Of a stretch of 64,000 nt of DNA, positions 2,586-64,000 are shown one piece after another. Numbering within the stretch: position 1 is the stretch's first letter; each line of letters begins with the position of its first letter. Origin of the DNA: an uncultured Methanomicrobiales archaeon (lineage in GTDB: Archaea > Halobacteriota > Methanomicrobia > Methanomicrobiales > Methanospirillaceae). The translations under genes and the position numbers were made by a program. The notes under the pieces are model-generated. The model ran no database searches. It saw only the letters and a program-made list of their open reading frames with translations, and was not told the origin of the DNA. The DNA lies in the NCBI GenBank assembly GCA_963758915.1, contig CAVWXH010000015.1, positions 81,737-145,736 of the forward strand, given 5' to 3'.

Positions 2586-2599
2586 ATTCACCCTCAGAA

Positions 2600-5316: not shown

Positions 5317-5342
5317 CGTTCATCCTCCTGACAAAGGATACC

Positions 5343-13339: not shown

Positions 13340-13349
13340 GAGGGACAAA

Positions 13350-16911: not shown

Positions 16912-16923
16912 TTAATTTTTTAA

Positions 16924-18558: not shown

Positions 18559-18680
18559 TGTATGTCCTGTACTTCATTCCCGGTACGCCATTAACATTTG
18601 GCTGCTCGGGAGGACAAAGAACATACAAATCATCATGTCCGGAGAGCCGTTATATTCCCGGAACACCAAACAGGGTAATA

Positions 18681-19490: not shown

Positions 19491-19606
19491 CCAGACAACC
19501 GCGATGTGGCCGGGGGGTGTTGAAAGGTGCCCGCAGACCTGTTTTCCTTCGATAAATCTGTGAACAATAGATATCATTATTGACTGGTGCACGAATTACT
19601 CTAACC

Positions 19607-22055: not shown

Positions 22056-22056
22056 C

Positions 22057-36296: not shown

Positions 36297-36309
36297 GACT
36301 AAATCACAC

Positions 36310-37113: not shown

Positions 37114-37124
37114 AGAATCCTCCG

Positions 37125-38066: not shown

Positions 38067-38103
38067 CAGAAATCATGGGTTATGAAGGGAGTTAATGGTT
38101 ATT

Positions 38104-39123: not shown

Positions 39124-39551
39124 AACATGTGGAAATTCAAAATTAAATTATTTAAACCTAATCTTTTGATAACCGGGATTGAATGGCAGGTATCATGGAA
39201 GAGACCCAACCGATTGCAGAATTAATACTGTTCGGGATGAAAGCGAGATTATTTTGTTTTTGTCGAAGAGAATACAATTGCAAAAAACCCGATATTTTTG
39301 TCTTTTTAAACAACGAATATTGCGTTTTTAATGAACGTATATTGTAGAATCAACGATGAAAGCCAATGGTTTGCAATAGTGTCACCCAATGAACTATACA
39401 TATCTTTCTATACCTTTGCAATTCTTATTGTTCAGGATTTCAATCCTGCCATGCTCAGGTCAGCCGTGGGAACGTTTAATGACAAAAGCAAGGTTAAAAA
39501 TTTCAATGCGGTGAGAATACGAATTTCTTGCCAAAATCCGGGGTGTGAAAA

Positions 39552-42500
39552 ATGTATAAAAAACAGGATATGCATAGCCTTAGCAGTAGCTGTAGTTCTT
39601 TAATATCATCGTTGAATTCCCGTTCGCCAGTAGTTACCCTTCTTATTATATTTTCGATTTTTTTGGTACTATTTGCGGCAGGTGGTGTGCATGCCGAGGA
39701 ACCGACTATCTCAGGAGAGACGAACCAGGTACTAGCAACTATCACCCCAACAGGCACCCCGGCTGAGCAGGGAACAATAGAAAATGAAGTCATCCCCCCC
39801 GTATTACTAGTCCCCCCTGCCAGCACCCCGGCTGAGCAGGAATCAATAGGAAATGAAGTCATCCCCCCTGTAGTATTAGTCACCCCAACCGGTACCCCGG
39901 CTGAGCAGGAATCAATAGAAAATGAAGTCACTCCCCCTGTAGTATTAGTCACCCCAACCAGCACCCCGGCTGAGCAGGAATCAATAGAAAATGAAGTCAC
40001 TCCCCCTGTAGTATTAGTCACCCCAACCGGTACGCCGGCTGAGCAGGAATCAATAGGAAATGAAGTCATCCCCCCTGTAGTATTAGTCACCCCAACCAGC
40101 ACCCCGGCTGAGCAGAACCTGGTTTTCCCGGAAGAGACAAGCCCGGTAGTAACTGAAGCCATCCTGATACTCACACCTATTGTAGATAACACCACACAAT
40201 CAATTCAGGTCGCAGAATCTCCCATAATATCACCTGAATTCAATACCACGACATTCATCCCCTTGACAAACAATTCAGTGGTCTTACCACAGATTCCTGA
40301 TCCCTTTATTTTACCGAATATAACAGTGCAAGGAACTGATGGTGCAGCACTGGCTAATACATCGTTGGTAACGAACGAGATCAACCAGAGCATGGTCTTA
40401 GAAAATGTGACCCAGGACCTGCCAGGCCTGCCGGGTAACAATTATACCTGGTCTGACCCCCCCCTCAATACAACCCATGACAATCCATATTACCTGAACA
40501 ACCAGAGCTGGGTCATAAATGAATCCGGACACAACTGGATAATGGACCTGGAACCGGCTAACAACACCAATTATCCATCAGGCATCCAATTCGATGGTAC
40601 AAATACGTTCTCTGGTTTTGGCATTAACTTCGCGATTCTTATCAATGCCTCCAATGTGATATTCGACGGGATGGGTGCCATCCTGAACGGTGGCGGAAAT
40701 ACGGAGTACGGGATTATTGTTAATAACCAGTCTGCAGCGAATTACAATAATTTTGGATCATCCCCGTCGATGGGTGGGATCAGCATCACGAACATCACGC
40801 TGACCGGGTTCAAGATTGCCGGAATTTTCTTTAACAACGTAATTGGCGATCAACCACTGGATATTGTTTCGAATATCACCCATGTGAATGCGAGTGGAAA
40901 CCTGGGAAGTGGCATTGTCCTTTCGAATTCCGCGAATATTGAGGTCAGTAATAACCATGTCTATGATAACCTGCAAAATGGGATCCTGCTCCAGTTATCC
41001 AGTAATAACAATGTATCCTGGAATGAGGCGATCAACAACACCTGGAGCGGGGTGAATGTCACCTCGTCCGCTGATAACAGGATCGACTGGAATAATCTTA
41101 CTTATAACAGGGAAGGCCTAGTCCTCGCCAACGCCTGGAATAATACGCTCACCCGGAATAACGCAAGTTACAACAATGAATATGGGTACCTGCTGAATGG
41201 CTCCTGGAATAATTCCATATCAGGCAGTACAGTCCGCAACAACAACTTCGATGGGATCCACCTCACCAATTCCAGTGTGAATAACCTTACAGAAAATATT
41301 GTCATCAACAACCGGATCGGTATCGTCCTGAACGGCTCGAATGAAAACATACTGTCTGGCAATAATGCCAGTTACAATACTCAGAACGGGATGGTTCTTA
41401 CGAACTCAAGTTCGAATATTCTCTATAACAATACCGCATCGCGGAACACATTGAATGGTATCTACCTCAATGCGTCGAGTACTGATAATAACCTGACCCA
41501 TAATTATGCAAACAGCAACACGCAGAATGGCATTGTCTTATCGGGTATTGGTTTTAATAATCTGACAGGAAATAATGCGAGTGGGAACCAGGATGGTATT
41601 GTATTACTCAATGCCTGGAATACTACGCTGATCGGGAACAACGCGAGTTACAACCTGCAATCGGGGATTCATCTGGTATCATCCCGAAATAATACTCTTG
41701 ATTCAAATATTGCGTTTGGAAACACGCTATATGGGTTATACCTCGATTCTTCAGTGAACAACACCCTCAACGCGAATAATGCGAGTAATGGCAATAGTAT
41801 TGGGATAAATCTATATAATTTATCAAGTGGCAACACGCTGACGGGCAATAATGCCAGCCGAAACAACGATAAGGGTATCGAGATCTCCACGTCAAGTAAT
41901 TCCAACATGTTGGTTAATAACACCGTTATTTTAAATACGAATTATGGTGTCCGGATTTTCAGACTCCAGTTTCAACAACCTTTCAGGGAATAATGCCAGT
42001 AACAATAAATACGGGATATATCTGGATAATTCCGCAGTAAATAATACAATCGCTTCAAATTCGATCGTAAGTAATACCCTTGATGGGATTTTCCTCACTG
42101 GTTCAACGAATAATTCCATCTTCTCAAATTATTTGAGTAAAAACCTTAACTACGGGGTTTCCCTGACTAACTCTCAGAATAACCAGATATCAGGTAACAG
42201 TATCAATCTAAGTGTACGTGGGGTTTATCTTACCGGCTCTTCTGGAAACACCCTTGAAAACAATACCATCTCCTACAATTCACAAAGGGGCATCTCCCTC
42301 TCCAGTTCTCCGGATAATACGATCAGTAACAACACTCTGTTCAAAAATACTTATGGCATCTACCTGGAGTCGTCGTCGAACCAGAATAACCTCAATAGCA
42401 ACGATGTGTCATCCAATAACGATACCGGTATTTACCTTTTTGGATCCCGCAATAATTCGTTGTTTAATAACACAGCCACAAATAACCCCACCAGTGGTAT

Positions 42501-45500
42501 CCAACTGGTCTCTTCGAGTGATGGCAACACCCTGACTTCGAACAATGCAAGCAGCAATGCCCAGAATGGCATTTCCATCACCAGCTCAAATTACAACAAT
42601 CTGACGGCGAATATTGCAGGAAACAATTTACTGAATGGAATCATCCTCACCACATCGAGTAATGGCAACAACCTGACAGCCAACGATGCGAGCAACAACA
42701 ACCAGAACGGTATCCTGATTAGTGACTCGAACCGGAATACCCTAACCGGGAACAATGCAAGTTACAACACATTGAATGGGATCCGCCTAACAAATTCGAA
42801 CAATAATAGCCTTAATGACAACATTGCGAACCTGAACCGTGGTTACAGCGGTATCAACCTTACCGGGTCGAGCAACAATACCCTGTTCAACAATACTGCC
42901 TGGTATAACCCGCAGAACGGCATTATCCTGAATGGCTCGAGCAATGGCAATAACCTGAAAGCCAACGATGCGAGTAACAACTACCAGAATGGTATTCTTG
43001 TCAATGGTTCGAACAACAATACCCTGACGGGGAATGTAGCCGGGAATAATTCATATAATGGCATCCTTCTGACGAGTTCCAATAATAACACACTCACGAG
43101 CAATATCGCGAACCTGAACCGTGGTTACAGTGGCATCAACCTTACCGGGTCGAGCAACAATACCCTGTTCAACAACACCGCCTGGTACAACCAGCAGAAC
43201 GGAATTATCCTTAATGGATCGAGTAATGGCAACAACCTTACAGCCAACGAGGCAAGCAACAATAACCAGAATGGTATCTGGATTAACGGTTCAAATCTGA
43301 ATACCCTTACCGGGAACGTCGCTGGTAACAATTCACTAAATGGGATACTGCTGACTGGTTCGAACAACAACACCCTCACCAGCAACATAGCGAATTCCAA
43401 CCGAGGTTACAGTGGTATAAACCTGACTGGATCGAGCAACAATACCCTGTTCAACAACACCGCCTGGTATAACCCGCAGAATGGGATTATCCTGAACGGA
43501 TCAAGTAATGGTAACAACCTGACAGCCAACGATGCGAGTAACAACAACCAGAACGGTATCCTGATAAATAGTTCAAACCTGAACCAGCTGACAGGGAACG
43601 TTATAGGAAATAACTCTTTTAATGGCATACTCCTGACAAATTCGAACAACAATAACCTCAGCAGCAATATTGCAAATTCAAACCGAGGTTACAGCGGGAT
43701 TAACCTGACCGGGTCGAGCAACAATACCCTGTTCAACAATACCGCCTGGTATAACCCGCAGAACGGGATAATTCTCACAGCATCCAGTAACGGGAATAAT
43801 CTTACAAGAAACGATGCGAGCAACAACAACCAGGATGGTATACTGGTCAACGGTTCAAATGTTAACAGCCTGACCCAGAACACCGCAGGTAACAATCTCC
43901 GGAATGGAATTCTCATCAATAATTCGCAGTATAACCTCCTCACCGGGAACAATGCAAGTTCCAATACCCTCAATGGCATCATTCTAACAAATTCTTCGCA
44001 GAACACTCTCAATTCGAACATCGCCAATAATAATCTCCAGACGTACGGAATATACCTCAATAACTCCGGCCAGAATACCCTGATAAATAATAGTATGTCA
44101 GGGAATACCCTGAACTTCGGCCTTGATGGAGCAACCGACCAGGACTTTATCCAGACTATTGACAGGACAAACCTGGTGAACGGAAAAAGTATCGTCTACC
44201 TGTATAACGCAAACCGGGTGGTTGTCGATCGCAATTCGAACGCGGGGATGGTCATCGCCATTAACAGTACAGGCCTGATACTCGAGGACCTCAGGCTATC
44301 CACCAACGAGTACGGGGTATATTTCAGGAATACCAAAAACTCACAGCTCTTCAATGTCACTGCCACCGGGAACCTGAATGGTATGACGCTCGATAAGGGG
44401 AGCTCAGGCAATTCTATTGATGACAGCAACTCCTCCGGAAACCAATTGAACGGCCTCCTGGTCCAATCCTCGAATTCCAACATAATCACAGACAGCAGGT
44501 TCAATACCAATGGTCTGAACGGCATTGTCCTCAATTCATCAAATTTGAACACAATGGACAGCGTTACTACGGATAATAATGCATTAAATGGTATTTTCCT
44601 GAATAATTCGAACCAGAACGTCATATCACTGGGTACGGTGACCAATAACAAGCTTGACGGGATCAACCTTTCAGGATCGAATAATAACACATTGAATACC
44701 AATACAATCCGTGGGAACAGCCGGAATGGGATTATCCTGAACAGTTCCGGTGATAATCGCCTGATTGGAAACGTCGTTGAGGATAATCTGCAAAATGGTA
44801 TCGCTCTAACAAATTCCAGTAATGTTAATGCCCTGCTGGCAAACAAGGTGAACAACAATACCCTCAACGGGATCCTTATTGAAAACTCCAACAATAACAG
44901 CCTCACTGGGAATAGTGCAAAAAACAACAGGAATCTTGACGGTATCAACCTGTCCGGCTCAAACAATAACATCTTAAACTTAAATACTGCAACGGGAAAC
45001 GCCGGAAATGGTATCTCCCTCAATTCTTCTAATAATAACGAACTGAATGGAAATACTGCCAGTACCAATACATTAAACGGAATATTCCTTTCGCAGTCGA
45101 ATAACAACACCCTTTCCGGGAACAACGCGAATAGCAACCTGGCGAACGGGACATACCTGCTCAACTCGGTTAACAATACGTTGTCCGACAATTTTGCAAA
45201 TAACAACCAGCAGAACGGTATATCGCTTGTGTCATCAGGTTCCAGCAGACTGCTCCGTAATAGTCTTGACCAAAACACAATGAACGGGATTTCCTTACTG
45301 TCATCCAATTCAAGCATTCTTACATCAAACAATGCAATCAACAACACACTCGCCGGGGTCCTTCTTTCAAACTCCTACAACGGCACCCTTTCTCTCAATG
45401 TCGCAAATGATAACCGGGGCCAGGGCGGGATTGTTCTCACCAATTCCGGAAACACCACGCTTGCCAGCAACACGGCTTCAGGGAATGCACAGCAGGGAAT

Positions 45501-48500
45501 CTCCCTTTCAGGATCGAATGACAACAACCTGACAGGAAATTCTGCCAACTCAAATGCCCAGAACGGTATCCTTGTTTTAAACTCTGTGAATAATACCCTG
45601 AATAACAATGTCGCAAATTCGAATGCCCTGAACGGCATCCGTCTTTCCGGCTCACAAAATAATTCGTTGGCCCAGAACACGGCACAGGGGAATACAGGAA
45701 ACGGGATATCCCTTGATAATTCGGTTTCCAATAACCTTTCGGGTAACACAGTGACCGGTAATACCCAGAATGGTATCGCTCTCACTGCAGCGTCCAACTG
45801 GAATAACCTGACAGCGAATACCGCAAGTAGTAACCTGCAAAATGGTATTTCGCTGACAGGTTCACAAAATAACAATATTTCAAACAATATCGTCAACAGT
45901 AATACCCGGAATGGTATCAGTCTCACGACTTCCGCTAACAATCAGCTTACAAATAACTCTGCCAGCCTTAACCAGCAGAACGGTATCCTGGTTACATCGA
46001 GTAACGGCAACAGCCTGATACTGAACAATGCAAACGGGAATGTTCAAAACGGTATATCGCTTTCCCAATCGAATTCGAATAACCTGACGCTGAATACCGC
46101 AAATGGCAATTCAGCGAATGGAATTATTCTCAGTAATTCGAATGATAATATTCTTGGATCGAATGTTGCAAACAATAACCAGCTCTACTATGGATTATAC
46201 CTCACCTCTTCGGGTAACAATACCCTCCGCAATAACAGCATGGCCGGGAATACCCTTAACTTTGGCCTCGACGGGACAACAGACCCCCATTACGTGCAGG
46301 ATATTGACACCACAAACAAGGTGAACGGAAAGAGCATCATTTACCTCCGGAACACGACGGACTCGATCGTCGATTCGTCATCCAATGCCGGAACGGTTTA
46401 CATCATCAATGGCACGAATGCCACCCTGAAGGACCTCCAGCTGGACCAGAATGAATTCGGGGTATACTTGAGAAATACCACGCTCTCCACCATCCAAAAC
46501 GTGTCGGCCAGCCGGAATATGCAGGGGATTGAGGTGGAGCTGAGTAATTCGAACAACATCTCCGGTTCAAATACCAGTTACAACCGCCAGAACGGGATCC
46601 TTCTCATCGATTCTGACAACAATAACCTGACAAATGACATTGCTTCATTTAACACCCTGAATGGGATCTCTCTCCTTCGTTCAGATGCAAATAACCTTAC
46701 CGGTACAAACACCTCACGAAACGGACAAAACGGTATCCTTCTGACCGATTCAAATGGAAATCTCCTCTTTGGAAACAATGCGAGCCTGAATACTCTTGAA
46801 GGGATCAACCTTACGACGTCAAACCGGAACCTGCTCATCAATAATACCGTCACATCAAACCGGCAGAATGGAATTTATCTCGTGGATTCGACAGAAAACA
46901 CCCTTGCCGGGAACAATGCATCCTTAAACGAGCAGTATTACGGGATTTATGTCCACAATTCCGGAAATAATACCCTGTATGATAATAATATGACCAGCAA
47001 CCGCCTGAACTTCGGTCTCGACGGGACGACGGACTTCCATTTTGACCAGAATATCAATGATACCAACTTCGTTGACGGGCGACTGGTGATTTACCGGCAA
47101 AATGTGGACAATATCACCATTAACGCTTCATCGAATGCCGGGACCGTGTATGCGATAAACAGTACCAACTTTACCGTAACGGACATAACCCTCAACAAAA
47201 ATGAATACGGGGTTTATTTCAGGAATACTACCAACTCAACCGTCCAGAATTTCACAGCCAATGATAATATGAACGGGGTGGTGCTGGATTTCAGCAGTAA
47301 CAATACAATCCAGAACTCTACTTCCTCAAATAACATGCAGAATGGGATATACCTCGTCGATTCGAGTTACAACACGGTAAATAATACCACAACCTCAAAC
47401 AACAATGAGGTCGGGATTTTACTGGTCAGGTCGTTCAATAATACGATCTCGAACAACACCGCGAATGAGAATACAGACGCTGGCATTCTTGTGGACCAGA
47501 ACAGCCAGTACAACCAGATCCTCAACAATTCAGCAAATAATAATGATTTCTATGGAATTGCCATTCACCACTCCCCCTACAACACTATTAAAAACAATAC
47601 CATGAGTGGAAATCTCTGGAATTTCGATATTGAAGGAGATACCGAGGCTGAGCTGACCCAGTACATGGACGACAGCAACACGGTCAATGGCTCCCCGATC
47701 ATCTACCGGTATAATGAAAGTGATCGGTTATACGATCTTTCGAACCCAGCCGATACCATATACTTCGTTAACTGTTTCAATATGACAGTCCGGAACCTGA
47801 CATTCACCAACCAGGGTTTCCCATTGCGGTTCTGGAATACGACGAATTCCCGTATCGAGAATGTCACCTCGTATGATAACGAGGACGGGCTCCTGATGCA
47901 GGCAGGAAGTGATAACAATTATGTCCTGAATTCATCTTTCAATTCAAACCATGGATATGGCGTGGAAATGAATGACAGTGGCCATAACACGTTTGAGACG
48001 GTTAACGCAAGCAATAACGTCCTTTCAGGGTTTATCATCCTGTCTTCGGATTATAATAACTACCTCAATGTAACAGCCAATAATAACCAGCAGGACGGGC
48101 TGATTTTCACCAATTCGAGCAATAATAATGTTATTGGTGGAAGTGCAAGTAACAATGCATGGAATGGTATCCATCTCACCAGTTCAAGTAACAACAATAC
48201 GATCTCGGGAATAAATGCCAGTAACAACGGGCTCGATGGTATCCAGCTCACAGACTCGGTCAATAATACCCTGACCTGGAATACGGCAAACAATAATAGA
48301 GAAAATGGTATCGAACTGATCAGGTCTAACCTGAACAATGTTACCGGGAATAATGTAAGCGGCAATTCCTTCAATGGGATCAACCTGGTCAGTTCGTCCG
48401 GCAATAACCTCACCGATAACAATGCAACGTATAACGTGAGAAACGGGATCCGGCTCTCAAATTCAACGAGCAACAACCTGACAGGAAACAATGCCAGTTA

Positions 48501-51500
48501 CAACCAGCAGAACGGGATTTTCCTCAATGCATCAGGGAATAATAACCTGACCGGGAACAATGCATTGTTCAACACGTTAAACGGATTAACCCTGATCAAT
48601 TCGAACAACAGTAACCTGACAGGATAACAATGCCAGTTACAACCAGCAGAACGGGATATCACTCACCGGTTCGGCAAATAATAACCTTACCGGGAATACC
48701 GCAATAAATAACACGTTTAATGGTATCCTGCTCACGAACTCGAACAGTAACAATCTGACCGGTAACAATGCAAGTTACAACCAGCAGAACGGGCTGGAAC
48801 TGACCGGGTCAGACAACAACAACCTGGCGGGTAACAACGCGACATTTAACAAAGAAAATGGTATCCTTCTCACAAATTCGGATTTCGCGGTAATTTCCGG
48901 TAATAATGCGAGCAATAATTCCTGGAATGGAATTGATATTACCGGGTCTGTATTTGCAAACCTTACGGGGAACAATGCAAATTTCAATACCCTGAACGGG
49001 ATCAATCTTACGGATTCAAACAACTCAACAATTACCAAAAACAATGCCACCGGGAACCTCCGGGATGGGTTCCAGATAACGAATTCCAGTTCGAATGATT
49101 TCAACGGCAATAATGCGAGCAATAACCAGGGGAACGGGTTCAGTGTTATCAGCTCGGCAAATGACAACCTGACCGCAAACATTGCAGATAATAACAGCCA
49201 GAATGGGTTCTACGTTTCCGGTTCGACAACACTCAACCTGACCGGCAATGATGCGAATCACAACCAGTTTGATGGCATCCAGCTTGTTAACTCGGGCAAA
49301 ACCGATATTGTCGGAAATAATGTGACCTATAACGGGTGGAATGGTGTCAATCTTACTAATTCCATTGAAGTCAGTCTCCGGAACAATAATGCAAGTTCCA
49401 ACCAGCAGAACGGGGTTGTACTCAATAACTCGTATAATAATGACCTCATCGGCAATATTGTTGTTAATAATACCTGGAACGGCATATCACTCACAAATTC
49501 CGGCTTCAACAATGTAAGCGGGAATATTGCCCGCAATAACAGCAGGGACGGTATCAGCCTCCTTAATTCGGGGAATAACGAGCTCTACAATAATAATGCG
49601 ACTAATAATTCCCTGAATGGTATTTCATTGGTTAATTCCCTCAATGCGAACCTCCAGGGGAACAACGCGAGTTACAACAGCCTCAACGGGATCTCTCTCA
49701 ACGGTTCAGGGGGTATTAATCCAAAACTCGTCAGTAACATTGCGAATAACAATAAAGCGAACGGGATCGAGATTATCAATTCCAGTAACGTCAACGTCAG
49801 GAACAATGTTGCCAGTAACAATTCCGAAAATGGTATCCTGATCAATGGCTCTGAATTAACCAACCTTTTCGGGAATATCGCGAACACTAATACCCTGGAC
49901 GGAGTTAATGTCACTAACTCAAATAATGGCTTCATTTTCCGGACGACCGCGAATAACAATAACCAGAGTGGTATCCTCCTGGTGAGTTCGAATTCGAACG
50001 ATATAGAAAACAATGTTGCGAACGGAAATCTTGGCCAGAGCGGGATTAATTTAAGAGATTCAGGCAACAACACGCTCATTGGTAATACTGCCGGATACAA
50101 CAGGGATGGTATCCTTCTCAATAATTCGAGCGGGAACCACCTGATACAGAACAATGCCAGTAATAATCTCCTGAATGGAATTGAACTGGTAAATTCTTCC
50201 GCAAATACCCTTACCAATAACATTGCGACCCGAAACAACCAGGATGGCGTTGCATTAGTAAATTCAAGTGGAAATACACTGTCAGGGAATTCTGCAAATG
50301 CCAATAATTACAGCGGTATTAACCTGACAAACTCGGGTTATAACACCCTTACCAACAACATAGCGACCGGGAACAATCAGAGTGGAGTAATTTTCGCGAA
50401 TTCAACCGGGAATTTGCTATTTAATACTAGTGCAGGAAATAACAGGCAGAATGGAATTTTCATGGATTTCCTGAGTGGTAATAACACACTTACCGAAAAC
50501 AGGGCCTGTGGAAACCAGTGGAATGGTATCTTCATTGACGGTTCAGCCCCGAATAACCTGACCGGGAATACCGCCTGCGATAACGGGCAAAACGGAATCC
50601 TGCTTCTGAATTCAACAAATAACAACCTGACCAGTAACCTTGCCTATAACAACACGCTAAGCGGTATCAACCTGACAAACTCGAGCTGGAACACCCTGTT
50701 CAACAACACCGCCAGGGATAACCTTGGAAACGGTATCTCCCTTGTTGATTCCCATGACCTGAACCTGACGAGCAATATTGCTACCAATAATTCACTGAAT
50801 GGTATTCTTCTGATGAATATCACCGGCACCAGCCTGGCGGCAAACAACGCGAGTTACAACACGCTAAACGGCATCAACCTGACGAATTCGGATTACAACA
50901 ATCTCACCAGTAATACAGCAATAAATAATTCCCGTAATGGATTGCTTCTTGATGGTTCAGGCTGGAATAACCTGACGGGTAATATCGCGAACAATAATAC
51001 CTGGAACGGCCTGTCGCTAACGAATTCGAGCAACAACACGGTTTACAACAATACCGCGCTCAGGAACGTGCAGAACGGGATTCTCCTTACAACAGGATCG
51101 AACAACAACAACCTGACCGGAAACAACGTGAGTTACAACACGTGGAATGGCATCAACCTGACGAACTCGAATAATAATGATCTTACAGGCAACACAGCGC
51201 AAAACAACTCCCGGAATGGAATATTCCTTGATGGGTCCCTCAGGAATAACCTGACGGATAATATAGCGAATAACAATACCTGGAACGGCCTGTCGCTAAC
51301 GAATTCGAGCAACAACACGGTTTACAACAATACCGCGCTCAGGAACATGCAGAACGGGATTTTCCTTACAACCGGGTCCAACAACAACAACCTGACCGGA
51401 AACAACGCGAGTTACAACACGTTAAACGGCATCAACCTGACGAATTCGAATAACAACCTGACAGCAACACGCGCAAAACAACTCCCGGAATGGAATATTC

Positions 51501-54500: not shown

Positions 54501-57500
54501 ACGGGAACAACCAGAACAACACGTTCACCCGGAACAACGCGAGCCAGAATACGAATAACGGGTTCCTGCTGGTCACGTCCGACAACAACACGTTCACCGA
54601 CAACACAGCGACGAGGAACGGGCAGTCCGGGTTCAACCTGAGCGAATCGAACAACAACCGGTTCGTCAACACGACGGCGAACAACAACGTGCAGGACGGC
54701 ATCCGGATCTACAACTCGAATAACGAGACGTTCACCAACACCACAGCCAACAACAACGGCTGGAACGGAGTGAACCTGAGTATCGTGCGTGACAGCCTGT
54801 TCACCAACACGACGGCGAGCAACAACGGTCTCGTCGGAGTCCTGGTCACCGACTCGAGAAACATCACGCTGAACGGCGGCTCGGTAATCAACAACACGAA
54901 TGAAGGAGTCCTCCTCTCGAACACGACGTTGAGCCAGTTGAATAACCTCAACGTCAGCCTGAACCGGAACGACGGGATAGAGCTCCGGAACGGTTCACAC
55001 GACAACACATTAACCGGGAACACAATCCTCGGCAACACCGGAGAAGGAGTCAACGCCGGCCAGCTGAACGGGAACAACCAGAACAACACGTTCACCCGGA
55101 ACAACGCGAGCCAGAATACGAATAACGGGTTCCTGCTGGTCACGTCCGACAACAACACGTTCACCGACAACACAGCGACGAGGAACGGGCAGTCCGGGTT
55201 CAACCTGAGCGAATCGAACAACAACCGGTTCGTCAACACGACGGCGAACAACAACGTGCAGGACGGCATCCGGATCTACAACTCGAATAACGAGACGTTC
55301 ACCAATACCACAGCCAACAACAACGGCTGGAACGGGGTGAACCTGAGTATCGTGCGTGACAGCCTGTTCACCAACACGACGGCGAGCAACAACGGTCTCG
55401 TCGGAGTCCTGGTCACCGACTCGAGAAACATCACGCTGAACGGCGGCTCGGTAATCAACAACACAAATGAAGGAGTCCTCCTCTCGAACACGACGGTGAG
55501 CCAGTTGAATAACCTCAACGTCAGCCTGAACAGGAACGACGGGATAGAGCTCCGGAACGGTTCACACGACAACACATTAACCGGGAACACAATCCTCGGC
55601 AACACCGGAGAAGGAGTCAACGCCGGCCAGCTGAACGGGAACAACCAGAACAACACGTTCACCCGGAACAACGCGAGCCAGAATACGAATAACGGGTTCC
55701 TGCTGGTCACGTCCGACAACAACACGTTCACCGACAACACAGCGACGAGGAACGGGCAGTCCGGGTTCAACCTGAGCGAATCGAACAACAACCGGTTCGT
55801 CAACACGACGGCGAACAACAACGTGCAGGACGGCATCCGGATCTACAACTCGAATAACGAGACGTTCACCAATACCACAGCCAACAACAACGGCTGGAAC
55901 GGGGTGAACCTGAGTATCGTGCGTGACAGCCTGTTCACGAACACGACGGCGAGCAACAACGGTCTCGTCGGAGTCCTGGTCACCGACTCGAGAAACATCA
56001 CGCTGAACGGCGGCTCGGTAATCAACAACACAAATGAAGGAGTCCTCCTCTCGAACACGACGTTGAGCCAGTTGAATAACCTCAACGTCAGCCTGAACAG
56101 GAACGACGGGATAGAGCTCCGGAACGGTTCACACGACAACACATTAACCGGGAACACAATCCTCGGCAACACCGGGGAAGGAGTCAACGCCGGCCAGCTG
56201 AACGGGAACAACCAGAACAACACGTTCACCCGGAACAACGCGAGCCAGAATACGAATAACGGGTTCCTGCTGGTCACGTCCGACAACAACACGTTCACCG
56301 ACAACACAGCGACGAGGAACGGGCAGTCCGGGTTCAACCTGAGCGAATCGAACAACAACCGGTTCGTCAACACGACGGCGAACAACAACGTGCAGGACGG
56401 CATCCGGATTTACAACTCGAATAACGAGACGTTCACCAACACCACAGCCAACAACAACGGCTGGAACGGGGTGAACCTGAGTATCGTGCGTGACAGCCTG
56501 TTCACCAACACGACGGCGAGCAACAACGGTCTCGTCGGAGTCCTGGTCACCGACTCGAGAAACATCACGTTCAACGGCGGTTCGGTAATCAACAACACAA
56601 ATGAAGGTGTCCTCCTCTCGAACACGACGCTGAGCCAGTCTCAACAACCTGAATGTCAGCCTGAACAGGAACGACGGCATCTGGCTGATTAATTCTGGTG
56701 CAAACAATCTGACGAACAATATCCTGACTGGAAACCAGAAGAACGGAATAAACCTGACCGGATCAAGCCTCAACACCCTGTACAACAACACCGCCGTTCT
56801 GAACAAACAGAATGGTATTGCGCTGGACCTCGGCAGCAACAGCAACAACGTGACCGGGAACAATGCGAGTTTCAACAGCTGGAATGGTATCTACCTGAAC
56901 GGATCGACGCTGAACGACATCACCCTGAACAATGCCAGTTCGAACGGTTACAATGGTATCAGCCTGAACAACTCGTTCCAGAACAATATCACCAGCAACA
57001 ACGCGATAAACAACACGTTTAGTGGAATTTCACTGGCGAACTCGAGTAATAACCTGGTCTACAACAACACAGCCGTTCTGAACAAACAGAATGGTATTGC
57101 GCTGGACCTCGGCAGCAACAGCAACAACGTGACCGGGAACAATGCGAGTTTCAACAGCTGGAATGGCATCTACCTGAACGGATCGACGCTGAACGACATC
57201 ACCCTGAACGAAGCGAATTCGAACGGTTACAGTGGTATCAGCCTGAACAACTCGTTCCAGAATAATATCACCAGCAACAACGCGATAAACAACACGTTCA
57301 ACGGTATCCAGCTGACGAACTCGAGCAACAACCTGGTCTACAACAACACAGCAGTGCAGAACAAACAGAACGGTATTTCACTGGACCTCGGCAGCAACAG
57401 CAACAATGTAACCGAAAACAATGCGACGTTCAACAGCTGGAATGGCATTGCTGTAACTGCCTCAGACCGGAATAACCTCACGGGCAACAATGCGGGTTAC

Positions 57501-60500
57501 AATACATTGAGCGGTATCAACCTGACGAACTCGAACTGGAACACCCTGTTCAACAACACGGCGAACAGCAACAGCCAGGACGGGATCGTGCTCACGAATT
57601 CGTCCAACAATACATTGTACCAGAACATTGCCCGTTACAACCACCAGGACGGTATCCTCGTCAACCTGTCGAGCAACGGGAACAACCTCACCGAAAACCA
57701 GGTATGCGGAAACCTGTGGAACGGTATAGAAGTCAACGGGTCGGGCTGGAACGACCTTGTGAACAATGAAGTGTGCGACAATGGCCGGAACGGAATCCAG
57801 CTGACGGGTGCAGATCATAACAACCTGACGAGCAACATTGTCTACAACAACTCGTTGAGCGGCATCAGCCTGTCCGAATCTAACTGGAACAACCTATCAG
57901 GTAACGTGGTAACCAATAATTCACAGTCCGGAATATCCCTGACCGGATCAAGCCTCAACACCCTGTACAACAACACCGCAGTGCAGAACAAACAGAATGG
58001 TATTGCGCTGGACCTCGGCAGCAACAGCAACAACGTGACCGGGAACAATGCGAGTTTCAACAGCTGGAATGGTATCTACCTGAACGGGTCGACGCTGAAC
58101 GACATCACCCTGAACAATGCCAATTCGAATGGTTACAACGGTATCAGCCTGAACAACTCGTTCCAGAACAATATCACCAGCAACAACGCGATAAATAACA
58201 CGTTCAACGGCATCCAGCTGACGAATTCGAGTAATAACCTGGTCTATAACAACACCGCAGTACAGAACAAACAGAACGGTATTACGCTGGACCTCGGCAG
58301 CAACAGCAACAACGTGACCGGGAACAATGCGAGTTTCAACAGCTGGAATGGTATCTACCTGAACGGGTCAACGCTGAACAACATCACCCTGAACGATGCC
58401 AATTCGAATGGTTACAACGGTATCAGCCTGAACAACTCGTTCCAGAACAATATCACCAGCAACAACGCGATAAACAACACGTTCAACGGCATCCAGCTGA
58501 CGAATTCGAGTAACAACCTGGTCTATAACAACACCGCAGTACAGAACAAACAGAACGGTATAATGCCTGGACCTCGGCAGCAACAGCAACAACGTGACCG
58601 GGAACAATGCGACATTCAACAGCTGGAATGGCATTGCCTTGAATGCATCAGACAGGAACAACCTGACGAGCAATAACGCGAGTTACAATGCATTGAGCGG
58701 GATCAACCTGACGAACTCGAACTGGAACACCCTGTTCAACAACACGGCGAACAGCAACAGCCAGAACGGCATAGTGCTGACGAATTCGTCCAACAACACG
58801 CTGTACCAGAACATTGCCCGGTACAACCACCAGGACGGTATCCTTGTCAACCTGTCGAGCAACGGGAACAACCTCACCGAAAACCAGGTATGCGGAAACC
58901 TGTGGAACGGTATCGAAGTCAATGGATCGAGCTGGAACGACCTTGTAAACAATGAAGTGTGCGACAACGGCCGGAACGGCATCCTGCTGACGGCAGCAGA
59001 TCACAACAACCTCACGGGCAACGTTGTCTACAACAACACGCTTAAACGGCATCAGCCTGTCCGGATCTAACTGGAACAACCTCTCAGGGAATCTTGTCAC
59101 CAATAACACGCTGAACGGCATATCCCTGTCTGGATCATTGAACAACACGCTGTTCAACAACACAGCCGTTCTGAACAAACAGAATGGTATTGCACTGGAC
59201 CTCGGCAGCAACGGTAATGACCTGGTATTGAACAATGCCAGCAACAATGCCTGGAACGGTATCGCAGTCAACGGGTCCAACTGGAATAACCTGACCAGTA
59301 ACCAGGCGAATGACAACCCGTTCAGTGGCATCAACCTGACGAACTCGAACTGGAACACCCTGTTCAACAACACGGCGAACAGCAACAGCCAGAACGGCAT
59401 AGTGCTGACGAATTCGTCCAACAACACACTGTACCAGAACATTGCCCGGTACAACCACCAGGACGGTATCCTTGTCAACCTGTCGAGCAACGGGAACAAC
59501 CTCACCGAAAACCAGGTATGCGGAAACCTGTGGAACGGTATCGAAGTCAATGGATCAAGCTGGAACGACCTTGTGAACAATGAAGTGTGCGACAACGGCC
59601 GGAACGGTATCCTGCTGACCGGAGCAGATCACAACAACCTCACGGGCAACGTTGTCTACAACAACACCTTAAACGGCATCAGCCTGTCCGGATCTAACTG
59701 GAACAACCTCTCAGGGAATCTTGTCACCAATAACACGCTGAACGGCATATCCCTGTCTGGATCATTGAACAACACGCTGTTCAACAACACAGCCGTTCTG
59801 AACAAACAGAATGGTATTGCACTGGACCTCGGCAGCAACGGTAATGACCTGGTATTGAACAATGCCAGCAACAATGCCTGGAACGGTATCGCAGTCAACG
59901 GGTCCAACTGGAATAACCTGACAAGTAACCAGGCGAATGACAACCCGTTCAGTGGCATCAACCTGACGAACTCGAACTGGAACACCCTGTTCAACAACAC
60001 GGCGAACAGCAACAGCCAGAACGGCATAGTGCTGACGAATTCGTCCAACAACACACTGTACCAGAACATTGCCCGGTACAACCACCAGGACGGTATCCTT
60101 GTCAACCTGTCGAGCAACGGGAACAACCTCACCGAAAACCAGGTATGCGGAAACCTGTGGAACGGTATCGAAGTCAATGGATCAAGCTGGAACGACCTTG
60201 TTGAACAATGAAGTGTGCGACAACGGCCGGAACGGCATCCTGCTGACAGCAGCAGATCACAACAACCTCACGGGCAACGTTGTCTACAACAACACGCTTA
60301 AACGGCATCAGCCTGTCCGGTTCTAACTGGAACAACCTCTCAGGGAATCTTGTCACCAATAACACGCTGAACGGCATATCCCTGTCTGGATCATTGAACA
60401 ACACGCTGTTCAACAACACAGCCGTTCTGAACAAACAGAATGGTATTGCACTGGACCTCGGCAGCAACGGTAATGACCTGGTATTGAACAATGCCAGCAA

Positions 60501-63500
60501 CAATGCCTGGAACGGTATCGCAGTCAACGGGTCCAACTGGAATAACCTGACAAGTAACCAGGCGAATGACAACCCGTTCAGCGGCATCAACCTGACGAAC
60601 TCGAACTGGAACACCCTGTTCAACAACACGGCGAACAGCAACAGCCAGAACGGCATAGTGCTGACGAATTCGTCCAACAACACCTGTTCCAGAACATTGC
60701 CCGGTACAACCACCAGGACGGTATCCTTGTCAACCTGTCGAGCAACGGGAACAACCTCACCGAAAACCAGGTATGCGGAAACCTGTGGAACGGTATCGAA
60801 GTCAATGGATCAAGCTGGAACGACCTTTTGAACAATGAAGTGTGCGACAACGGCCGGAACGGCATCCTGCTGACCAGTGCAGATCACAACAACCTCACGA
60901 ACAACGTTGTCTACAACAACACGCTTAAACGGCATCAGCCTGTCCGGTTCTAACTGGAACATCCTGTTCAACAACACCGTCTATGATAACCACGAGAACG
61001 GGATCTCGCTCACCGATTCCCATGATCTCAACCTGACAGGCAACACCGTGTTCAATAATACCCTGAACGGTATCCTGCTGACGAATATAACCAGCACCAA
61101 TCTGACTGGCAACAACGCGAGCTACAACAAACTAGATGGAATCCTCCTCATTAATTCGGAACACAACAACCTTACCGATAATCTCGCAAACGGGAACACG
61201 TTGAGCGGCATCAACCTGACCAGTTCGAGCTGGAATACCCTGTTCAACAACACGGCAAGGGATAACCACGAAAATGGTATCTCGCTTACCGATTCCCACG
61301 ACCTGAACCTGACGAGCAACATCGCATTCAACAACACGCAGAACGGCATCCTGCTCACGAACGTAACAGGAACCAACCTGACCGGGAACAACGCAAGTTA
61401 CAACGGGTTCAGCGGTATCAACCTGGTGAATTCAGATAATAACCGCCTGATTAACAACACTGCAAACGACAATACAGAGAACGGAATATCGTTGACCAAC
61501 TCGTCCGACAACCTGGTATTCAACAACACAGCCCGGTATAACCACCAGGACGGGATCCTGTTGAACCGATTGAGCAATAGGAACAACATCACCGAAAACA
61601 GTGTTTGCGGCAACTTGTGGAATGGTATCGAAGTCAATGGTTCGGATGGCAATGACCTTGTGAGGAACACGGTTTGTGACAACGGGCAGAATGGTATCCT
61701 GCTTACGGGATCTGAGTATAATAACCTGACCAGCAACGTGGCCTATAACAACACGTTGAGCGGCATCAACCTGACCAGTTCGAGCTGGAATACCCTGTTC
61801 AACAACACGGCAAGGGATAACCACGAGAATGGCATCTCGCTCACCGATTCCCACGACCTGAACCTGACGAACAACACGGCATTCAACAACACGTTGAACG
61901 GGATCCTCCTCACGAACATCACAGGAACCAGCCTGACCGGGAACAATGCAAGTTATAACGGGTTCAACGGCATCAGCCTGGTGAATTCAGACAATATCCG
62001 CCTTGTCAGCAACACGGCGAATAACAATACAGCGAATGGTATATCGTTGACCAACTCGTCCGACAACCTGTTGTTCAACAACACCGCCCGGTTTAACCAC
62101 CAGGACGGGATCCTGTTGACCCAGTCGAGCAATGGGAACAACCTTACCGAAAACAGTGTGTGTGACAACTGGTGGAACGGCATTGAACTCAGCGGCTCGG
62201 AAAACAACGACCTGATCAACAACACAGTATGCAACAACGGCCGGAACGGCATCCTGCTTACGGGATCTGAGTATAATAACCTGACCAGCAACGTGGCCTA
62301 TAACAACACGTTGAGCGGCATCAACCTGACCAGTTCGAGCTGGAATACCCTGTTCAACAACACGGCAAGGGATAACCACGAAAACGGTATCTCGCTTACC
62401 GATTCCCATGACCTGAACCTGACGAACAACATCGCCTTCAACAACACGCAGAACGGCATCCTGCTCACGAACGTAACAGGTACCAACCTGACCGGGAACA
62501 ATGCGAGTTACAATGGGTTCAGCGGTATCGACCTCGTTAATTCAGACAAGAACATCCTGATCAACAATATCGCAAACAACAACACGCAGAATGGTATCTC
62601 GCTTACCAACTCGTCCAATAATGTAGTATTCAACAACACCGCCCGGTTCAATTACCAGGACGGAATCCTGCTGAACCAGTCGAGCAACGGTAACAATGTC
62701 ACCGAGAACATGGTGTGTGGCAACTGGTGGAACGGGATAGCAGTAGACGGGTCAGAAAGGAATGAACTGGTAAACAACACAGTCTGCGATAATGGTCAAA
62801 ATGGTATCCTGCTGACAAATTCAGCACATAATAACCTGACAAATAACCTTGCCTACAACAACACGTTAAACGGCATCAACCTGACCGGTTCGAGCTGGAA
62901 CACCCTGTTCAACAACACGGCCAGTGACAACCTCGATAACGGTATCTCGCTCACCGATTCCAACGACCTGAACCTGACGAACAACATCGCATTCAACAAC
63001 ACGTTGAACGGTATCCTCCTCACGAACATCACAGGAACCAGCCTGACCGGGAACAATGCAAGTTATAATGGGTTCAACGGCATCAGCCTGGTGAATTCAG
63101 ACAATAACCGCATTCTCAACAACACGGCCAATAACAATACCCAGAATGGTATTTCGCTTACCAATTCATCCGACAACCTGCTGTTCAACAACACAGCCCG
63201 GTTTAACCACCAGGATGGGATCCTGTTGAATCAGTCGAGTAACAGGAATGATATCCTCGAGAACAGCGTCTGCGGCAACTTATGGAATGGTATCGAGGTT
63301 AACGGTTCTGACTGGAATGACCTCGTCAACAACACGGTCTGCAACAACGGCCGGAACGGCATCCTGCTTTCCGGTTCAGATCATAACAACCTGGAGCACA
63401 ACAACATTACCGGAAACCTGCTGGATGGGATCAACCTTACGAATTCAGACTGGAACACCTTGTTCAACAACACGGTCAGCAATAACCGGGGTAACGGAAT

Positions 63501-64000
63501 TTCACTCAATTCCTCTGATAACAACTGGCTTGAGGGTAACAACCTGGCATCAAATACCAAATCAGGGGTCCTTGTCCAGAATTCTTTCAATGACACGGTC
63601 ATCAATAATACCATCCAGCGGAACGGGAATGGCGTAACCTTTGAAAATACCAACGGCAGTTACATCCTTGGCAATCTTATCAGTGGGCAGACAGGGAATG
63701 GAATTACGTTCAATTCATCGTACTTCAATCGATCGCCAATAACACGGTTGTGAACAATGGTCAATACGGTATTTACTATAACGGGTCCGGTAATAACACG
63801 GTGTACAACAACTGGTTCAATAACAACGCAAACGTCAAACTCGATGGTTCGAACCTTGGAAACCTCTGGAATATCCCGAAAACAGGCCCATATACGAATA
63901 TCTATGGAGGCCCTTACCTCGGTGGTAACTACTGGGCACAGCCCAACGGGCAGGGATGGTCACAGATAACCCCGAACCGCAGTGACGGATTTACGACCAT
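39552..64000 (+). CDS. Giant secreted Asn-rich right-handed parallel beta-helix (NosD/CASH/PbH1) surface glycoprotein, more than 8,100 codons; frameshifted in this assembly and running off the window
   Basis: Signal peptide (..LFAAGGVHA|EE), Pro/Thr linker, then continuous GI.L..S.NN.L..N.A..N rungs across all consecutive + strand ORFs. C-cap motif NNWFNN...WN...NIYGGPYLGGNYWAQPNGQGWS at about 63800-63960. Confidence 0.88.
39743..40115 (+). repeat. 69-bp tandem repeat, about 5.5 copies (TPTGTPAEQESIENEVTPPVVLV)
   Basis: CACCCCGGCTGAGCAG recurs every 69 nt. Confidence 0.92.
42600..43850 (+). repeat. 282-bp (94-aa, 4-rung) tandem repeat, about 4 diverged copies
   Basis: RGYSGINLTGSSNNTLFNNTAWYN recurs. 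Antisense ORF boundaries 43125/43407/43689 are spaced 282 apart. Confidence 0.85.
50850..53650 (+). repeat. Two further 282-bp repeat families, including a garbled segment at about 51450-52130
   Basis: Periodicity 52645/52927/53209/53491. The NNTWNGLSLTNSSNNTVYNNTA unit repeats over 51.0-52.5 kb. Confidence 0.8.
53965..56678 (+). repeat. 567-bp (189-aa, 8-rung) near-perfect tandem repeat, about 4.8 copies
   Basis: Unit starts at 53965, 54532, 55099, 55666 and 56233, with only scattered substitutions. Confidence 0.95.
56750..58630 (+). repeat. 279-bp (93-aa, 4-rung) repeats in two sub-arrays
   Basis: NKQNGIALDLGSNSNNVTGNNASFNSWNG recurs at 279-nt spacing. Confidence 0.85.
58690..60960 (+). 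repeat. 627-bp (209-aa, 9-rung) near-perfect tandem repeat, about 3.6 copies
   Basis: Antisense ORFs at 59135 and 59762 are spaced 627 apart. ENQVCGNLWNG recurs. Confidence 0.9.
60950..63480 (+). repeat. 555-bp (185-aa, 8-rung) tandem repeat, about 4.5 diverging copies
   Basis: Periodicity 61743/62298/62853 and 61398/61953. Confidence 0.9.

Follow-up and report, generated by a model that had tools for sequence, protein, structure and literature searches.

A giant β-helix gene with a probably assembly-broken reading frame in an uncultured Methanomicrobiales archaeon, coding for a putative glycosylated surface fibre

Introduction

The kind of protein dealt with here is already known, the gene described below being an extreme member of it. 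In the Methanobacteriales, the so-called adhesin-like proteins (ALPs) are described as large, repeat-rich and Asn-rich surface proteins with a terminal hydrophobic anchor, the right-handed β-helical (RBH) domains of which are thought to bind glycans (PMC11532034). According to section 8 of the same paper, they are up to 4,691 aa long and combine a number of RBH domains with archaeal Big domains, which most ALPs have as repeats; 1,236 aa is the greatest length given there for an RBH (PMC11532034). From bacteria, Fap2 of Fusobacterium is presented as a 47-nm kinked helix of 2,905 residues, i.e. a single-chain spacer that binds with its distal tip (PMC12397386), while Cag_663 and Cag_665 from the Chlorochromatium epibiont are put forward as predicted parallel β-helix filaments of 12,000–14,000 aa, with models of 240–400 nm and a role in cell–cell contact (bioRxiv 10.64898/2026.03.19.712371). 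As far as the archaeal genes for proteins exceeding 10,000 aa are concerned, those given in a survey of giant genes are few and come mostly from Asgard archaea (10.1101/2023.11.21.568195). No literature combining the terms ‘parallel beta-helix repeat’ and ‘Methanoregula’ was found.

The present study concerns a window—the whole analysed stretch of 64,000 nucleotides from an uncultured freshwater methanogen of the Methanoregulaceae or Methanomicrobiales—in which an earlier note, made from the letters alone, had proposed a single giant β-helix protein at positions 39552–64000. Like the ALPs, this protein has an RBH and one N-terminal hydrophobic stretch of ~20 residues, a putative anchor; unlike them, as compared by description, it consists of one helix region of ~7,600 aa, contains no Big domain by Pfam and belongs to the order Methanomicrobiales. 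The best functional analogy may be offered by the bacterial rod adhesins of the Fap2 type, although Fap2, being an autotransporter, has a barrel in the outer membrane, whereas Pfam finds no family for an autotransporter barrel or a TPS domain in any window piece or in the C-terminus of the orthologue; moreover, the rungs are unrelated in sequence and the helix of the giant protein would be ~three times longer. To our knowledge, archaea do not have an outer membrane. Cag_663 and Cag_665 resemble the giant protein in being predicted as repetitive parallel β-helices of extreme length, but they are, as described in the preprint, bacterial, calcium-binding, exported by the type 1 route and equipped with large non-helix N-terminal parts; since they are also given there as longer, the archaeal helix is not the longest one known.

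Gene extent and protein architecture

The gene starts at window position 39552 and ends with a stop codon at positions 952–954 of another contig, C1, so that in total it covers ~8,460 codons and ~25.4 kb, which corresponds to a product of roughly 0.9 MDa before glycosylation. Its window part (39552–64000, + strand), read with translation table 11, falls into 13 pieces that run from stop to stop in shifting frames and of which the longest has 2,230 codons; together they yield 7,976 residues, 12 of them X placeholders. The frame changes number at least 14, i.e. 10 single sites and at least four in a garbled zone at 51400–52739. As for the single β-helix of more than 8,100 codons described in the earlier note, the one giant gene has thus been retained, but not the one ORF. 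It should also be pointed out that the frame described as still open at the window end only appears so: the window ends within the C-cap, where contig C15 but not the gene comes to an end, the continuation of the gene being found on C1:1–954. That C15 abuts C1 follows from the genome of a sister species, G006, in which the downstream DNA matches C1:2–6687 at 90.5%.

The protein begins with the N-terminal signal or anchor; a Pro/Thr-rich linker and then a conserved N-domain lead over to ~320 Asn-rich rungs, which contain four irregular inserts and are followed by one C-cap. The start codon and the putative signal peptide or signal anchor (39552–39695, +) include a charged n-region and ~20 hydrophobic residues followed by VHA/EE, no other 19-mer of the chain exceeding 1.6 in hydrophobicity, which agrees with the one signal peptide read from the sequence before. 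It precedes a Pro/Thr/Glu-rich linker (39742–40115, +) made of 69-nt tandem repeats (5.4 copies, 90% match, 23-aa unit) and the conserved N-terminal domain (40119–41000, +), which matches no Pfam family, is common to paralogues of 1,200–2,300 aa in related genomes and carries the expected N-cap motif ILINASNVIFDGMG near 40640. All four irregular inserts, which are N-cap-like and of the NFGLDG...VNGK type, are located inside the intact 2,230-codon piece, where they interrupt the rungs: the first one (44113–44242, +; NFGLDG...VNGKSIVY) aligns with the N-terminal portion of the NosD profile, and the remaining three (46258–46408, 47008–47206 and 47620–47812, all +) have been modelled by AlphaFold2 with low confidence.

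Concerning the helix itself, ~317 rung anchors were counted, spaced mostly 23–24 aa apart, in good accordance with the ~330 rungs of ~23 aa estimated earlier; the whole helix is put at about 320–335 rungs of 23–24 aa. It is closed by the C-cap (63906–63998, +), i.e. GGPYLGGNYWAQPNGQGWSQ..., which is cut by the contig end and has the motif GGPYLGGNYW at 63906–63935. This cap, anticipated near 63910, is the only one: no second GGNYW occurs in any + frame of the region, and just one of the NosD matches in contig C15 reaches the profile end.

Outside the window, on C1, a C-terminal module of ~315 aa is found, the succession after the helix being the cap, a Pro-rich linker, a weakly Ig-like module and a tail; the statement that no other domain is present therefore applies inside the window, but not beyond it. 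The weakly Ig-like label is owing to a sub-threshold Pfam match, N_BRCA1_IG, on the tail of the orthologue (E = 0.015, 16.3 bits vs. the cut-off of 28); in the window pieces, no Big or Ig family scores above the Pfam cut-off. An AlphaFold2 model of the C-terminal 366 aa of the orthologue, based on a 3-row alignment, has a pLDDT of 36.7, too low for a fold to be taken from it. The ESM Atlas search with the orthologue tail gave no usable match, and no homologue of the tail was seen at E ≤ 0.001 among 1,393 candidates of 957–2,730 aa.

Relatives, tandem arrays and length

The G006 genome contains a syntenic orthologue of ~23.8 kb with 87–90% DNA identity. The dN/dS between the two genes is 0.117 over 5,173 codons in the frames of the chain, the two alternative frames giving 2.58 and 1.43, which shows that the giant gene is under purifying selection. 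A collinear relative with 57–71% amino acid identity along the chain is encoded on a metagenome contig (L030) by a single frame that spans at least 6,339 codons (at least 19 kb) without a break and is still open at either end of the locus; its composition is that of the window chain, i.e. 26% Asn, with 1.68 sequons per rung in L030.

Within the genus, the locus is variable. The GAPDH gene is directly followed by the DUF308 gene, the locus being empty, in G010, G004, G007 and G008; in G001, an intact positional orthologue of 1,781 aa (L013:9218–14563) is placed between the two genes; and in both G000 and G006, the GAPDH/DUF308 locus holds ~8,000 codons. Within the genus, the gene is regarded as an accessory one. 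The G001 orthologue, placed like the giant gene between GAPDH and DUF308, and the 1,200–2,300 aa paralogues from Methanoregulaceae and Methanomicrobiales MAGs resemble the giant protein in the N-domain with its N-cap, which is 38% identical over 729 aa and includes a nearly identical FAILINASNVIFDGMGA block, in the rung type and, at 50% identity over 408 aa, in the C-cap, the Pro-rich linker and the C-terminal module; unlike these shorter family members, the giant gene has a ~five times longer helix and near-identical, lineage-specific tandem arrays. The search with the N-domain, covering the size range of 1,424–4,065 aa, revealed one protein (1,702 aa, 45% identity), and 39 proteins related to the 2,227-aa ORF were found in the size range of 3,899–5,000 aa. 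In short-read genomes, contigs were seen to break at such giant repeat genes.

One of the arrays, at 53965–56677 (+), is built from a 567-nt (189-aa) unit in four full copies, at least 98.6% identical, and a partial copy, and has no DNA match in G006; the other one, at 58527–60965 (+), consists of ~3.9 copies of a ~628-nt unit with 89–96% identity, and three breaks of the reading frame occur there in the same CTTAAACGG context. If such arrays had been over-expanded or mis-joined, the gene would still be real, but the true protein would be much shorter than ~8,460 aa. The contig breaks within the gene, the stretch 51400–52739 is garbled, and the short-read contigs used as the accurate sequence for comparing the break sites—assembled from three metagenome runs, X1, X2 and X4, of which X1 may be the source sample of the assembly and hence not an independent population—contain alternative joints through the repeats, namely from 48486 to 48626 (139 nt skipped; X1 and X4), from 52300 to 52464, and several back-joints. 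The array copy numbers and the exact length therefore rest on the long assemblies only. However, the independently assembled G006 gene spans ~23.8 kb and has the 138-nt stretch skipped by the short contigs, and the L030 frame runs unbroken over its whole extent; it should also be taken into account that short-word contigs collapse repeats and that the two sides of the 48486/48626 joint have 32 letters in common. A much shorter protein thus seems unlikely. Two further X4 joints, 52288 to 61374 and 52494 to 57207, were disregarded, their sides being only 21–22 letters and so below reliability.

Reading-frame breaks

Ordinary ORF calling divides the region into at least nine ORFs, but its pieces are joined by one-base edits. 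Once bases 41963 and 48625 are taken out, 39552–51400 reads open in a single frame through 3,949 codons, and after eight further one-base edits 52739–64000 does so through 3,752 codons; zero in-frame stops are left across 7,701 codons after these 10 edits. Since one-base edits account for the breaks and all three stop codons are found among them, other genetic codes were set aside.

At eight of the single sites, all on the + strand, the window has an extra base. At 41963, which lies outside the short-read stretch compared, G006 is without the base and open across the site. At 48625, the base is also absent from G006, the L030 frame runs unbroken (between residues 3276 and 3277) precisely at the window’s 48621/48623, and the X1 and X4 contigs make their connection in frame. 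For the break at 56638, there is the frame-repair test and, weakly, an X1 contig whose loose end is 1 nt shorter here. At 58566, the deletion is carried by a part of the short-read depth only (12.3 of 21.9 in X1 and 5.18 of 17.2 in X2), G006 exhibiting a net 1-nt difference. The remaining four—59040, 60203, 60297 and 60924—have one base less in G006; in addition, L030 is unbroken (residues 5728/5728) across 59043/59042, an X4 contig omits one base at 60295, and the frame-repair test speaks for 60203 and 60924. Three of them, 59040, 60297 and 60924, represent the same extra base in the CTTAAACGG context of three array copies, and this recurrent context, CTTAA(N)CGG, had 0 matches in a pattern scan of metagenome contigs. 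At the last two sites, a base is missing from the window: an A is inserted by the X1 and X4 contigs at 60684 and by the contigs of all three runs at 63729 (both +), and in both cases G006 has one base more. The garbled low-quality zone (51400–52739, +) is situated within a 279-nt repeat array (9% indels) and has, in addition to its frame changes, many deficits of 1–2 nt; short-read contigs differ from it by indels at 51713, 51783, 51836, 52371 and 52373. Taken over the whole gene, one-base indels in the contigs of the three runs are located at or beside the breaks at 51783, 58566, 60295, 60684 and 63729, while no indel was found in them at 59040, 60203 and 60924, nor over most of 51400–52739; together with 41963, these sites are backed by G006 or L030, if at all.

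The same breaks might also reflect a pseudogene recently inactivated in this genome, with real frameshifts and intact relatives. With 14 or more frame changes lying within 24.4 kb and the four neighbouring housekeeping genes at 35757–39123 (flank 36000–39500) intact, the clustering could be read as decay; the extra base recurring at three array copies would be expected if a real mutation had spread by gene conversion, and several break sites are those without an indel in the short-read contigs. On the other hand, the frame-restoring state exists in the contigs of the three runs at 60295, 60684 and 63729, and partly at 58566, nearly all of the breaks are one-base indels whose repair leaves no in-frame stop, and the dN/dS is low. 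The G006 gene is itself broken, but at sites other than those of the window, and it is open across the window breaks at 41963, 48625 and 63731 with a 1-nt difference there. Moreover, the segment C1:1–1040 contains 13 one-base insertions with regard to G006, three of them past the stop codon in intergenic DNA, so that this error zone has a technical origin and extends beyond the gene. RACo, a housekeeping gene in the window, is likewise split, into three ORFs. Recent inactivation is thus quite improbable, and the breaks are considered to be mostly one-base assembly errors, made where the sequence is repetitive and at a contig end of poor quality, based on the frame-repair test, the short-read contigs, the G006 orthologue and the unbroken L030 frame. 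Together with the unshared breaks and the purifying selection, this upholds the proposal of one giant gene instead of many small ones.

Fold and sequons

The β-helix character proposed for the whole of 39552–64000 on the + strand has been confirmed by profile searches, the Pfam families NosD (PF05048) and Beta_helix (PF13229) scoring above the cut-off in eight and seven, respectively, of the eight long pieces scanned. TIGR03804 reached 65–374 bits vs. the cut-off of 19.45 in all three proteins. In the AlphaFold2 model of 908 aa (mean pLDDT 85.8), the structure is all-β with periodic three strands per rung, and a Foldseek search with it gave 36 PDB matches at E ≤ 0.001, those listed being right-handed β-helix proteins, with a NosD structure among them. 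The model thus shows, as the predicted fold class, a right-handed three-strand parallel β-helix. As for the single straight rod of ~160 nm suggested earlier, the rungs are modelled confidently, but not the straightness, the block means falling to 40–75 at the three inserts of the model and the pTM being 0.61.

The resemblance to NosD consists in the matching of PF05048 to the rungs. The identity as NosD was rejected: the subfamily model TIGR04247 gave 35.4, 51.9 and 88.3 bits vs. the cut-off of 300, and no nosZ, nosF or nosY was found among the 31 window ORFs and four downstream C1 ORFs scanned, so that the designation NosD-type used in the earlier note applies only as a Pfam label. Odd low-score Pfam matches such as K1-lyase_N and Chordopox_A15, all of them near or below the cut-off with 0 stretches, were also obtained within the 567-nt array and discarded as noise of a biased repeat.

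The PDB entries closest in structure and in sequence, i.e. the alginate C5-epimerases AlgG and AlgE4, PL6 lyases and phage tailspike depolymerases, as well as weak NCBIfam matches to AlgG, could point to a polysaccharide-active enzyme—lyase, epimerase or depolymerase—instead of a structural fibre. The likeness is, however, at the level of the fold only (9–17% identity; query-normalised TM-score in Foldseek at most 0.23), and the AlgG model NF038177 scores 16–54 bits vs. the cut-off of 700. DPH[DE], the catalytic motif type of alginate C5-epimerases and PL6 lyases, has 0 matches in the three + frames of 39001–64000, and the ~320 near-consensus rungs seem to offer no evident catalytic groove, which makes an enzymatic function highly improbable. 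Several adjacent genes for separate β-helix proteins, for which the ORFs of ordinary calling and the four N-cap-like inserts as possible module starts could be invoked, may practically be dismissed, since the pieces overlap or abut without intergenic spacing and are joinable by one-base edits, no internal hydrophobic or signal segment exists, the C-cap is single, the inserts all belong to one intact piece, and L030 has one ORF over the same layout.

The high density of N-x-S/T sequons seen previously has been borne out by counting: 578 of them are present in 7,976 residues, i.e. 1.67 per rung, against 426 ± 15 in 200 shuffles. With STT3/AglB homologues present in the genome, N-glycosylation probably takes place at many of the ~580 or more sequons.

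Proposed role and significance

The best explanation of the whole is likely to be one gene of ~25.4 kb, with its frame shattered by the assembly, amplified, accessory and coding for an exported glycosylated β-helix surface fibre. The protein is probably exported via its N-terminal signal or anchor, in which case the Pro/Thr-rich linker would be at the cell-proximal end and the cap, the Pro-rich linker and the weakly Ig-like module at the far end; it may, however, be released rather than cell-bound. We infer that the long glycan-coated fibre would most likely serve as an adhesin or spacer, its distal module binding a partner or a surface. Starting from an ancestor of ~1,800 aa, the gene would have grown as multi-rung blocks were amplified in tandem. 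A bolder and rather doubtful version envisages a single-chain glycan-coated helix of ~150 nm, the longest in any archaeon, with a fast-evolving length due to multi-rung-block amplification; such a rod might determine how far from the cell a syntrophic partner or a particle is held, with the C-module as the contact point, or be a fence that bars viruses and predatory bacteria from the cell wall.

If the length holds, the protein would rank among the largest archaeal ones and would be an almost pure β-helix, ~six times the longest RBH domain reported for the ALPs in the source cited (1,236 aa; PMC11532034). There is also a practical warning in that long-read metagenome genomes may shatter giant repeat genes into many false ORFs; in view of these and of the contig breaks in short-read genomes, the number of giant repeat proteins in archaea is underestimated. 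The natural series within one genus—the gene absent, of 1,781 aa, or of ~8,000 codons—bears on what the helix length does at the surface of a methanogen.

Reading frame of the giant gene

As assembled, the region 39552-64000 (+) does not carry the single open reading frame of more than 8,100 codons described in the earlier note; read under translation table 11, it consists of 13 stop-to-stop pieces with the frame changing from piece to piece, the longest one (41935-48627) covering 2,230 codons. The piece junctions have the appearance of one-base slips, the rung sequence being otherwise continuous, and the long pieces scanned gave many matches each above the cut-off to the Pfam families NosD (PF05048; eight of eight pieces) and Beta_helix (PF13229; seven of eight). 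The lack of a stop before the window end is explained by the contig: the window corresponds to C15:81737-145736 and contig C15 has 145,736 bases, so that the last base of the window is also that of the contig.

Several independent lines indicate that the frame breaks are mostly not real. In a frame test, deleting a single base at each of the sites 41963 and 48625 opened 39552-51400 over 3,949 codons, and eight one-base edits—bases removed at 56638, 58566, 59040, 60203, 60297 and 60924 and an N inserted after 60684 and after 63729—made 52739-64000 one open frame of 3,752 codons, with zero in-frame stops left after the edits. The garbled zone 51400-52739, where the repeat copies differ by 9% indels and the frame changes at least four further times, resisted repair.

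A syntenic copy of the gene (DNA identity 87-90%) is found in the sister species of the same genus, G006, its frame being likewise shattered, at positions differing from those in the window. The sister copy is open across the window breaks at 41963, 48625 and 63731, with a one-base difference at exactly those sites, and the window frame is, in turn, open across the breaks of the sister copy. In the frames of the chain, i.e. of the giant gene read across its breaks, the dN/dS between the two species is 0.117 over 5,173 codons, the values in the other two frames being 2.58 and 1.43. A collinear relative from a metagenome contig, L030 (Ga0194039_1000422), sharing 57-71% amino acid identity along the chain, has an uninterrupted frame that counts 6,339 codons and runs off both ends of its 19,019-nt locus; it begins within the Pro/Thr-rich N-terminal repeats, possesses the same N-domain and runs on continuously (residues 3276 and 3277) at the window's frame change 48621/48623.

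Concerning short reads, contigs from the public metagenome runs X1 (which may be the source sample of the genome), X2 and X4 were aligned to 44001-64000, a range with the site 41963 outside it; no raw reads of a further run, X22, were placed there. One-base indels against the window were seen at or beside the break sites 51783 (+C), 60295 (-1) and 60684 (+A), as well as at 58566 (-1, carried by a fraction of the depth) and 63729 (+A, in X1, X2 and X4 alike), and contigs of X1 and X4 join 48486 to 48626, thereby bringing two frames into register. Within this range the contigs gave no indel at 59040, 60203 or 60924, sites supported only by G006 or L030. In the repeats the short-read contigs take alternative paths and, therefore, the array copy numbers are provisional.

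Junction of the two contigs

The frame in G006 runs 314 amino acids beyond the point matching the window end. The DNA downstream of it matches positions 2-6687 of another contig of the genome under study, C1, at 90.5%, and C15 therefore abuts C1. At the junction itself (window 64000 to C1:1), over which the sister sequence runs straight, there is a possible 1-nt overlap or extra T. The stop codon of the giant gene is C1:952-954, which gives a raw span of 25,403 nt and ~8,460 codons, the G006 copy covering ~23.8 kb; the residues readable in the window number 7,964 and weigh 848 kDa. The first 1,040 nt of C1 contain 13 one-base insertions with regard to G006, three of them past the stop codon. 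Together with the division of RACo (see below), these point to errors outside the giant gene as well, a further line against real breaks. The error pattern seems akin to that of an uncorrected long-read consensus; the giant gene itself is real, very large and misrendered by assembly errors.

Anatomy and fold

The N-terminus exhibits a charged n-region, a ~20-residue hydrophobic stretch—the sole hydrophobic segment of the chain—and VHA/EE. The linker is encoded by a 69-nt repeat in 5.4 copies, giving a Pro/Thr/Glu-rich 23-mer, and the conserved N-domain, for which no Pfam family was found, contains the N-cap; this domain turned up in 10 of 12 congeneric genomes other than the one under study and in 13 of 24 within the family. 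The Asn-rich rungs of ~23 residues proposed in the earlier note are borne out by ~317 anchors spaced mostly by 23-24 residues and by 26% Asn, the latter being the same in L030 (with 1.68 sequons per 23 residues); the sequons emphasized there amount to 578 vs 426 +/- 15 in shuffles, and only the one C-cap already described was found. Four irregular inserts (NFGLDG...VNGK), located at 44113, 46258, 47008 and 47620 (+), align with the N-terminal part of the NosD profile, but they are not gene starts because all four lie within the intact 2,230-codon piece; they may represent kinks in the helix.

An AlphaFold2 model of 45901-48624 (908 residues, 10-row alignment) has three strands per rung and a mean pLDDT of 85.8, the block means falling to 40-75 at the three inserts within it, with a pTM of 0.61. 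Its closest PDB matches are the right-handed beta-helix proteins AlgE4, AlgG, PL6 lyases, tailspikes and NosD. The model thus supports the right-handed beta-helix fold class, and the main structural reading made from the sequence holds, whereas the straight 160-nm geometry of the rod does not follow, given the low confidence at the inserts and the pTM.

The C-terminal extension known from G006 consists of the remainder of the cap (...GGNYWAQPNGQGWSQITPNRSDGFTT, then IPFRIDQDNIDELPL), a Pro-rich linker, a weakly Ig-like module (N_BRCA1_IG, E = 0.015, below the cut-off) and a ~170-residue tail. The downstream sequence, where a tip or anchor had been envisaged, thus supplies a linker, a module and a tail, but the extension contains no hydrophobic segment.

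Tandem arrays and evolution of the locus

The gene has grown by tandem amplification. Four copies of a 567-nt unit, sharing 98.6% identity or more, lie in one array, which no DNA in G006 matches; the repeat units of further arrays measure ~628 nt and 279-282 nt. In the 567-nt array (54000-56000) the G+C content is 0.556 and the AT skew 0.41, both clearly higher than elsewhere in the gene, whose first 12 kb have a G+C content of 0.44-0.46. A separate array, repeating every ~207 nt or three rungs, occupies the centre of the G006 copy (loci L009/L010 on G006:C12, ~17777-18650 in reverse-complement coordinates); the central part of the gene has therefore been built from distinct amplified blocks in each species.

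The giant gene is positioned between the genes for GAPDH and a DUF308 membrane protein, the former having been located in 12 of the genus's 13 genomes. In G010, G004, G007 and G008 the two are direct neighbours and lack an intervening beta-helix gene; G001 has an intact 1,781-residue orthologue there with the N-domain and C-module of the giant form, and the ~8,000-codon form is present in the genome under study and G006. In this comparison the contigs of G002 and G003 stop within ~1 kb of GAPDH, and G009, G012 and G005, with GAPDH at the contig end, were left out. Other family members found have 1,200-2,300 residues.

Genomic setting and paralogues

The window neighbours are methanogen housekeeping genes—the CODH/ACS operon, H+-pyrophosphatase, Cdc6 and GAPDH. 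The organism's contigs were found in freshwater and sediment metagenomes, part of the stretch being present in 20 of the 24 runs listed, from 16 studies; X1, X2 and X4 are the three of these that were compared with the window above.

The CODH/acetyl-CoA synthase operon of the cdhA-E type is complete (7765-14783, +), comprising Prismane/CODH, epsilon, CdhC and two CdhD-family genes, with a DUF166 gene and RACo (corrinoid activation) downstream. The RACo gene (16924-18558, -) is divided into three frames, namely Fer2 (18172-18558), Raco_middle (17768-18127) and the end of Raco_middle with RACo_C_ter (16924-17826), which two indels of the assembly or a genuine break of the gene would explain. Within 19580-22758 (+), the gene of a CARDB/DUF11-type surface protein precedes those of an FtsX-like permease and an ABC ATPase, and the group may be a small module serving export or the surface.

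The genome also encodes four other large beta-helix paralogues, at C7:80441-88990 (-), C12:7906-18503 (+), C13:10054-14827 (-) and C7:23129-30468 (+). Several are split over two to four frames (e.g. 435 + 206 + 2,230 codons on C7), probably by assembly indels, too. After the C12 paralogue, the same-frame ORFs 16887-18503 and 18504-19871 are separated by one stop codon (C12:18501-18506); they are probably just adjacent genes, since the second resembles an unrelated cytoplasmic enzyme.

Comparison with known proteins and possible function

Identity with NosD was rejected because TIGR04247, with its cut-off at 300 bits, scored 35-88 and the surroundings contained no nos genes. An enzymatic role is also unlikely, the AlgG model being far below its cut-off and the DPH[DE] motif absent.

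The closest relatives are the shorter members of the protein's own family. Among proteins already described, those nearest in kind are the adhesin-like proteins of Methanobacteriales, reaching up to 4,691 residues, with 1,236 residues as the longest beta-helical domain reported there (PMC11532034). The best functional analogy is Fap2, a kinked, tip-binding beta-helix rod of 47 nm and 2,905 residues (PMC12397386). Parallel beta-helix regions of 12,000-14,000 residues, which are much longer, have been described in bacteria (bioRxiv 10.64898/2026.03.19.712371), and a giant-gene survey gives archaeal genes of more than 10,000 residues as few and mostly from Asgard archaea (10.1101/2023.11.21.568195). 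The protein collection, searched for lengths to 5,000 residues, contains 39 beta-helix repeat proteins of 3,900-5,000 residues; the literature search found no publication on this beta-helix family in Methanoregulaceae.

The giant protein would most likely be exported by the Sec route via its N-terminal signal or anchor and N-glycosylated by AglB—STT3 homologues are present in the genome—and, once outside the cell, would fold into a long beta-helix covered with glycans, with the Pro/Thr-rich linker presumably cell-proximal and the C-terminal module at the distal tip. Such a layout would be that of a long-reach adhesin or spacer, the giant protein being an extreme case within a kind of archaeal surface protein that is already known.
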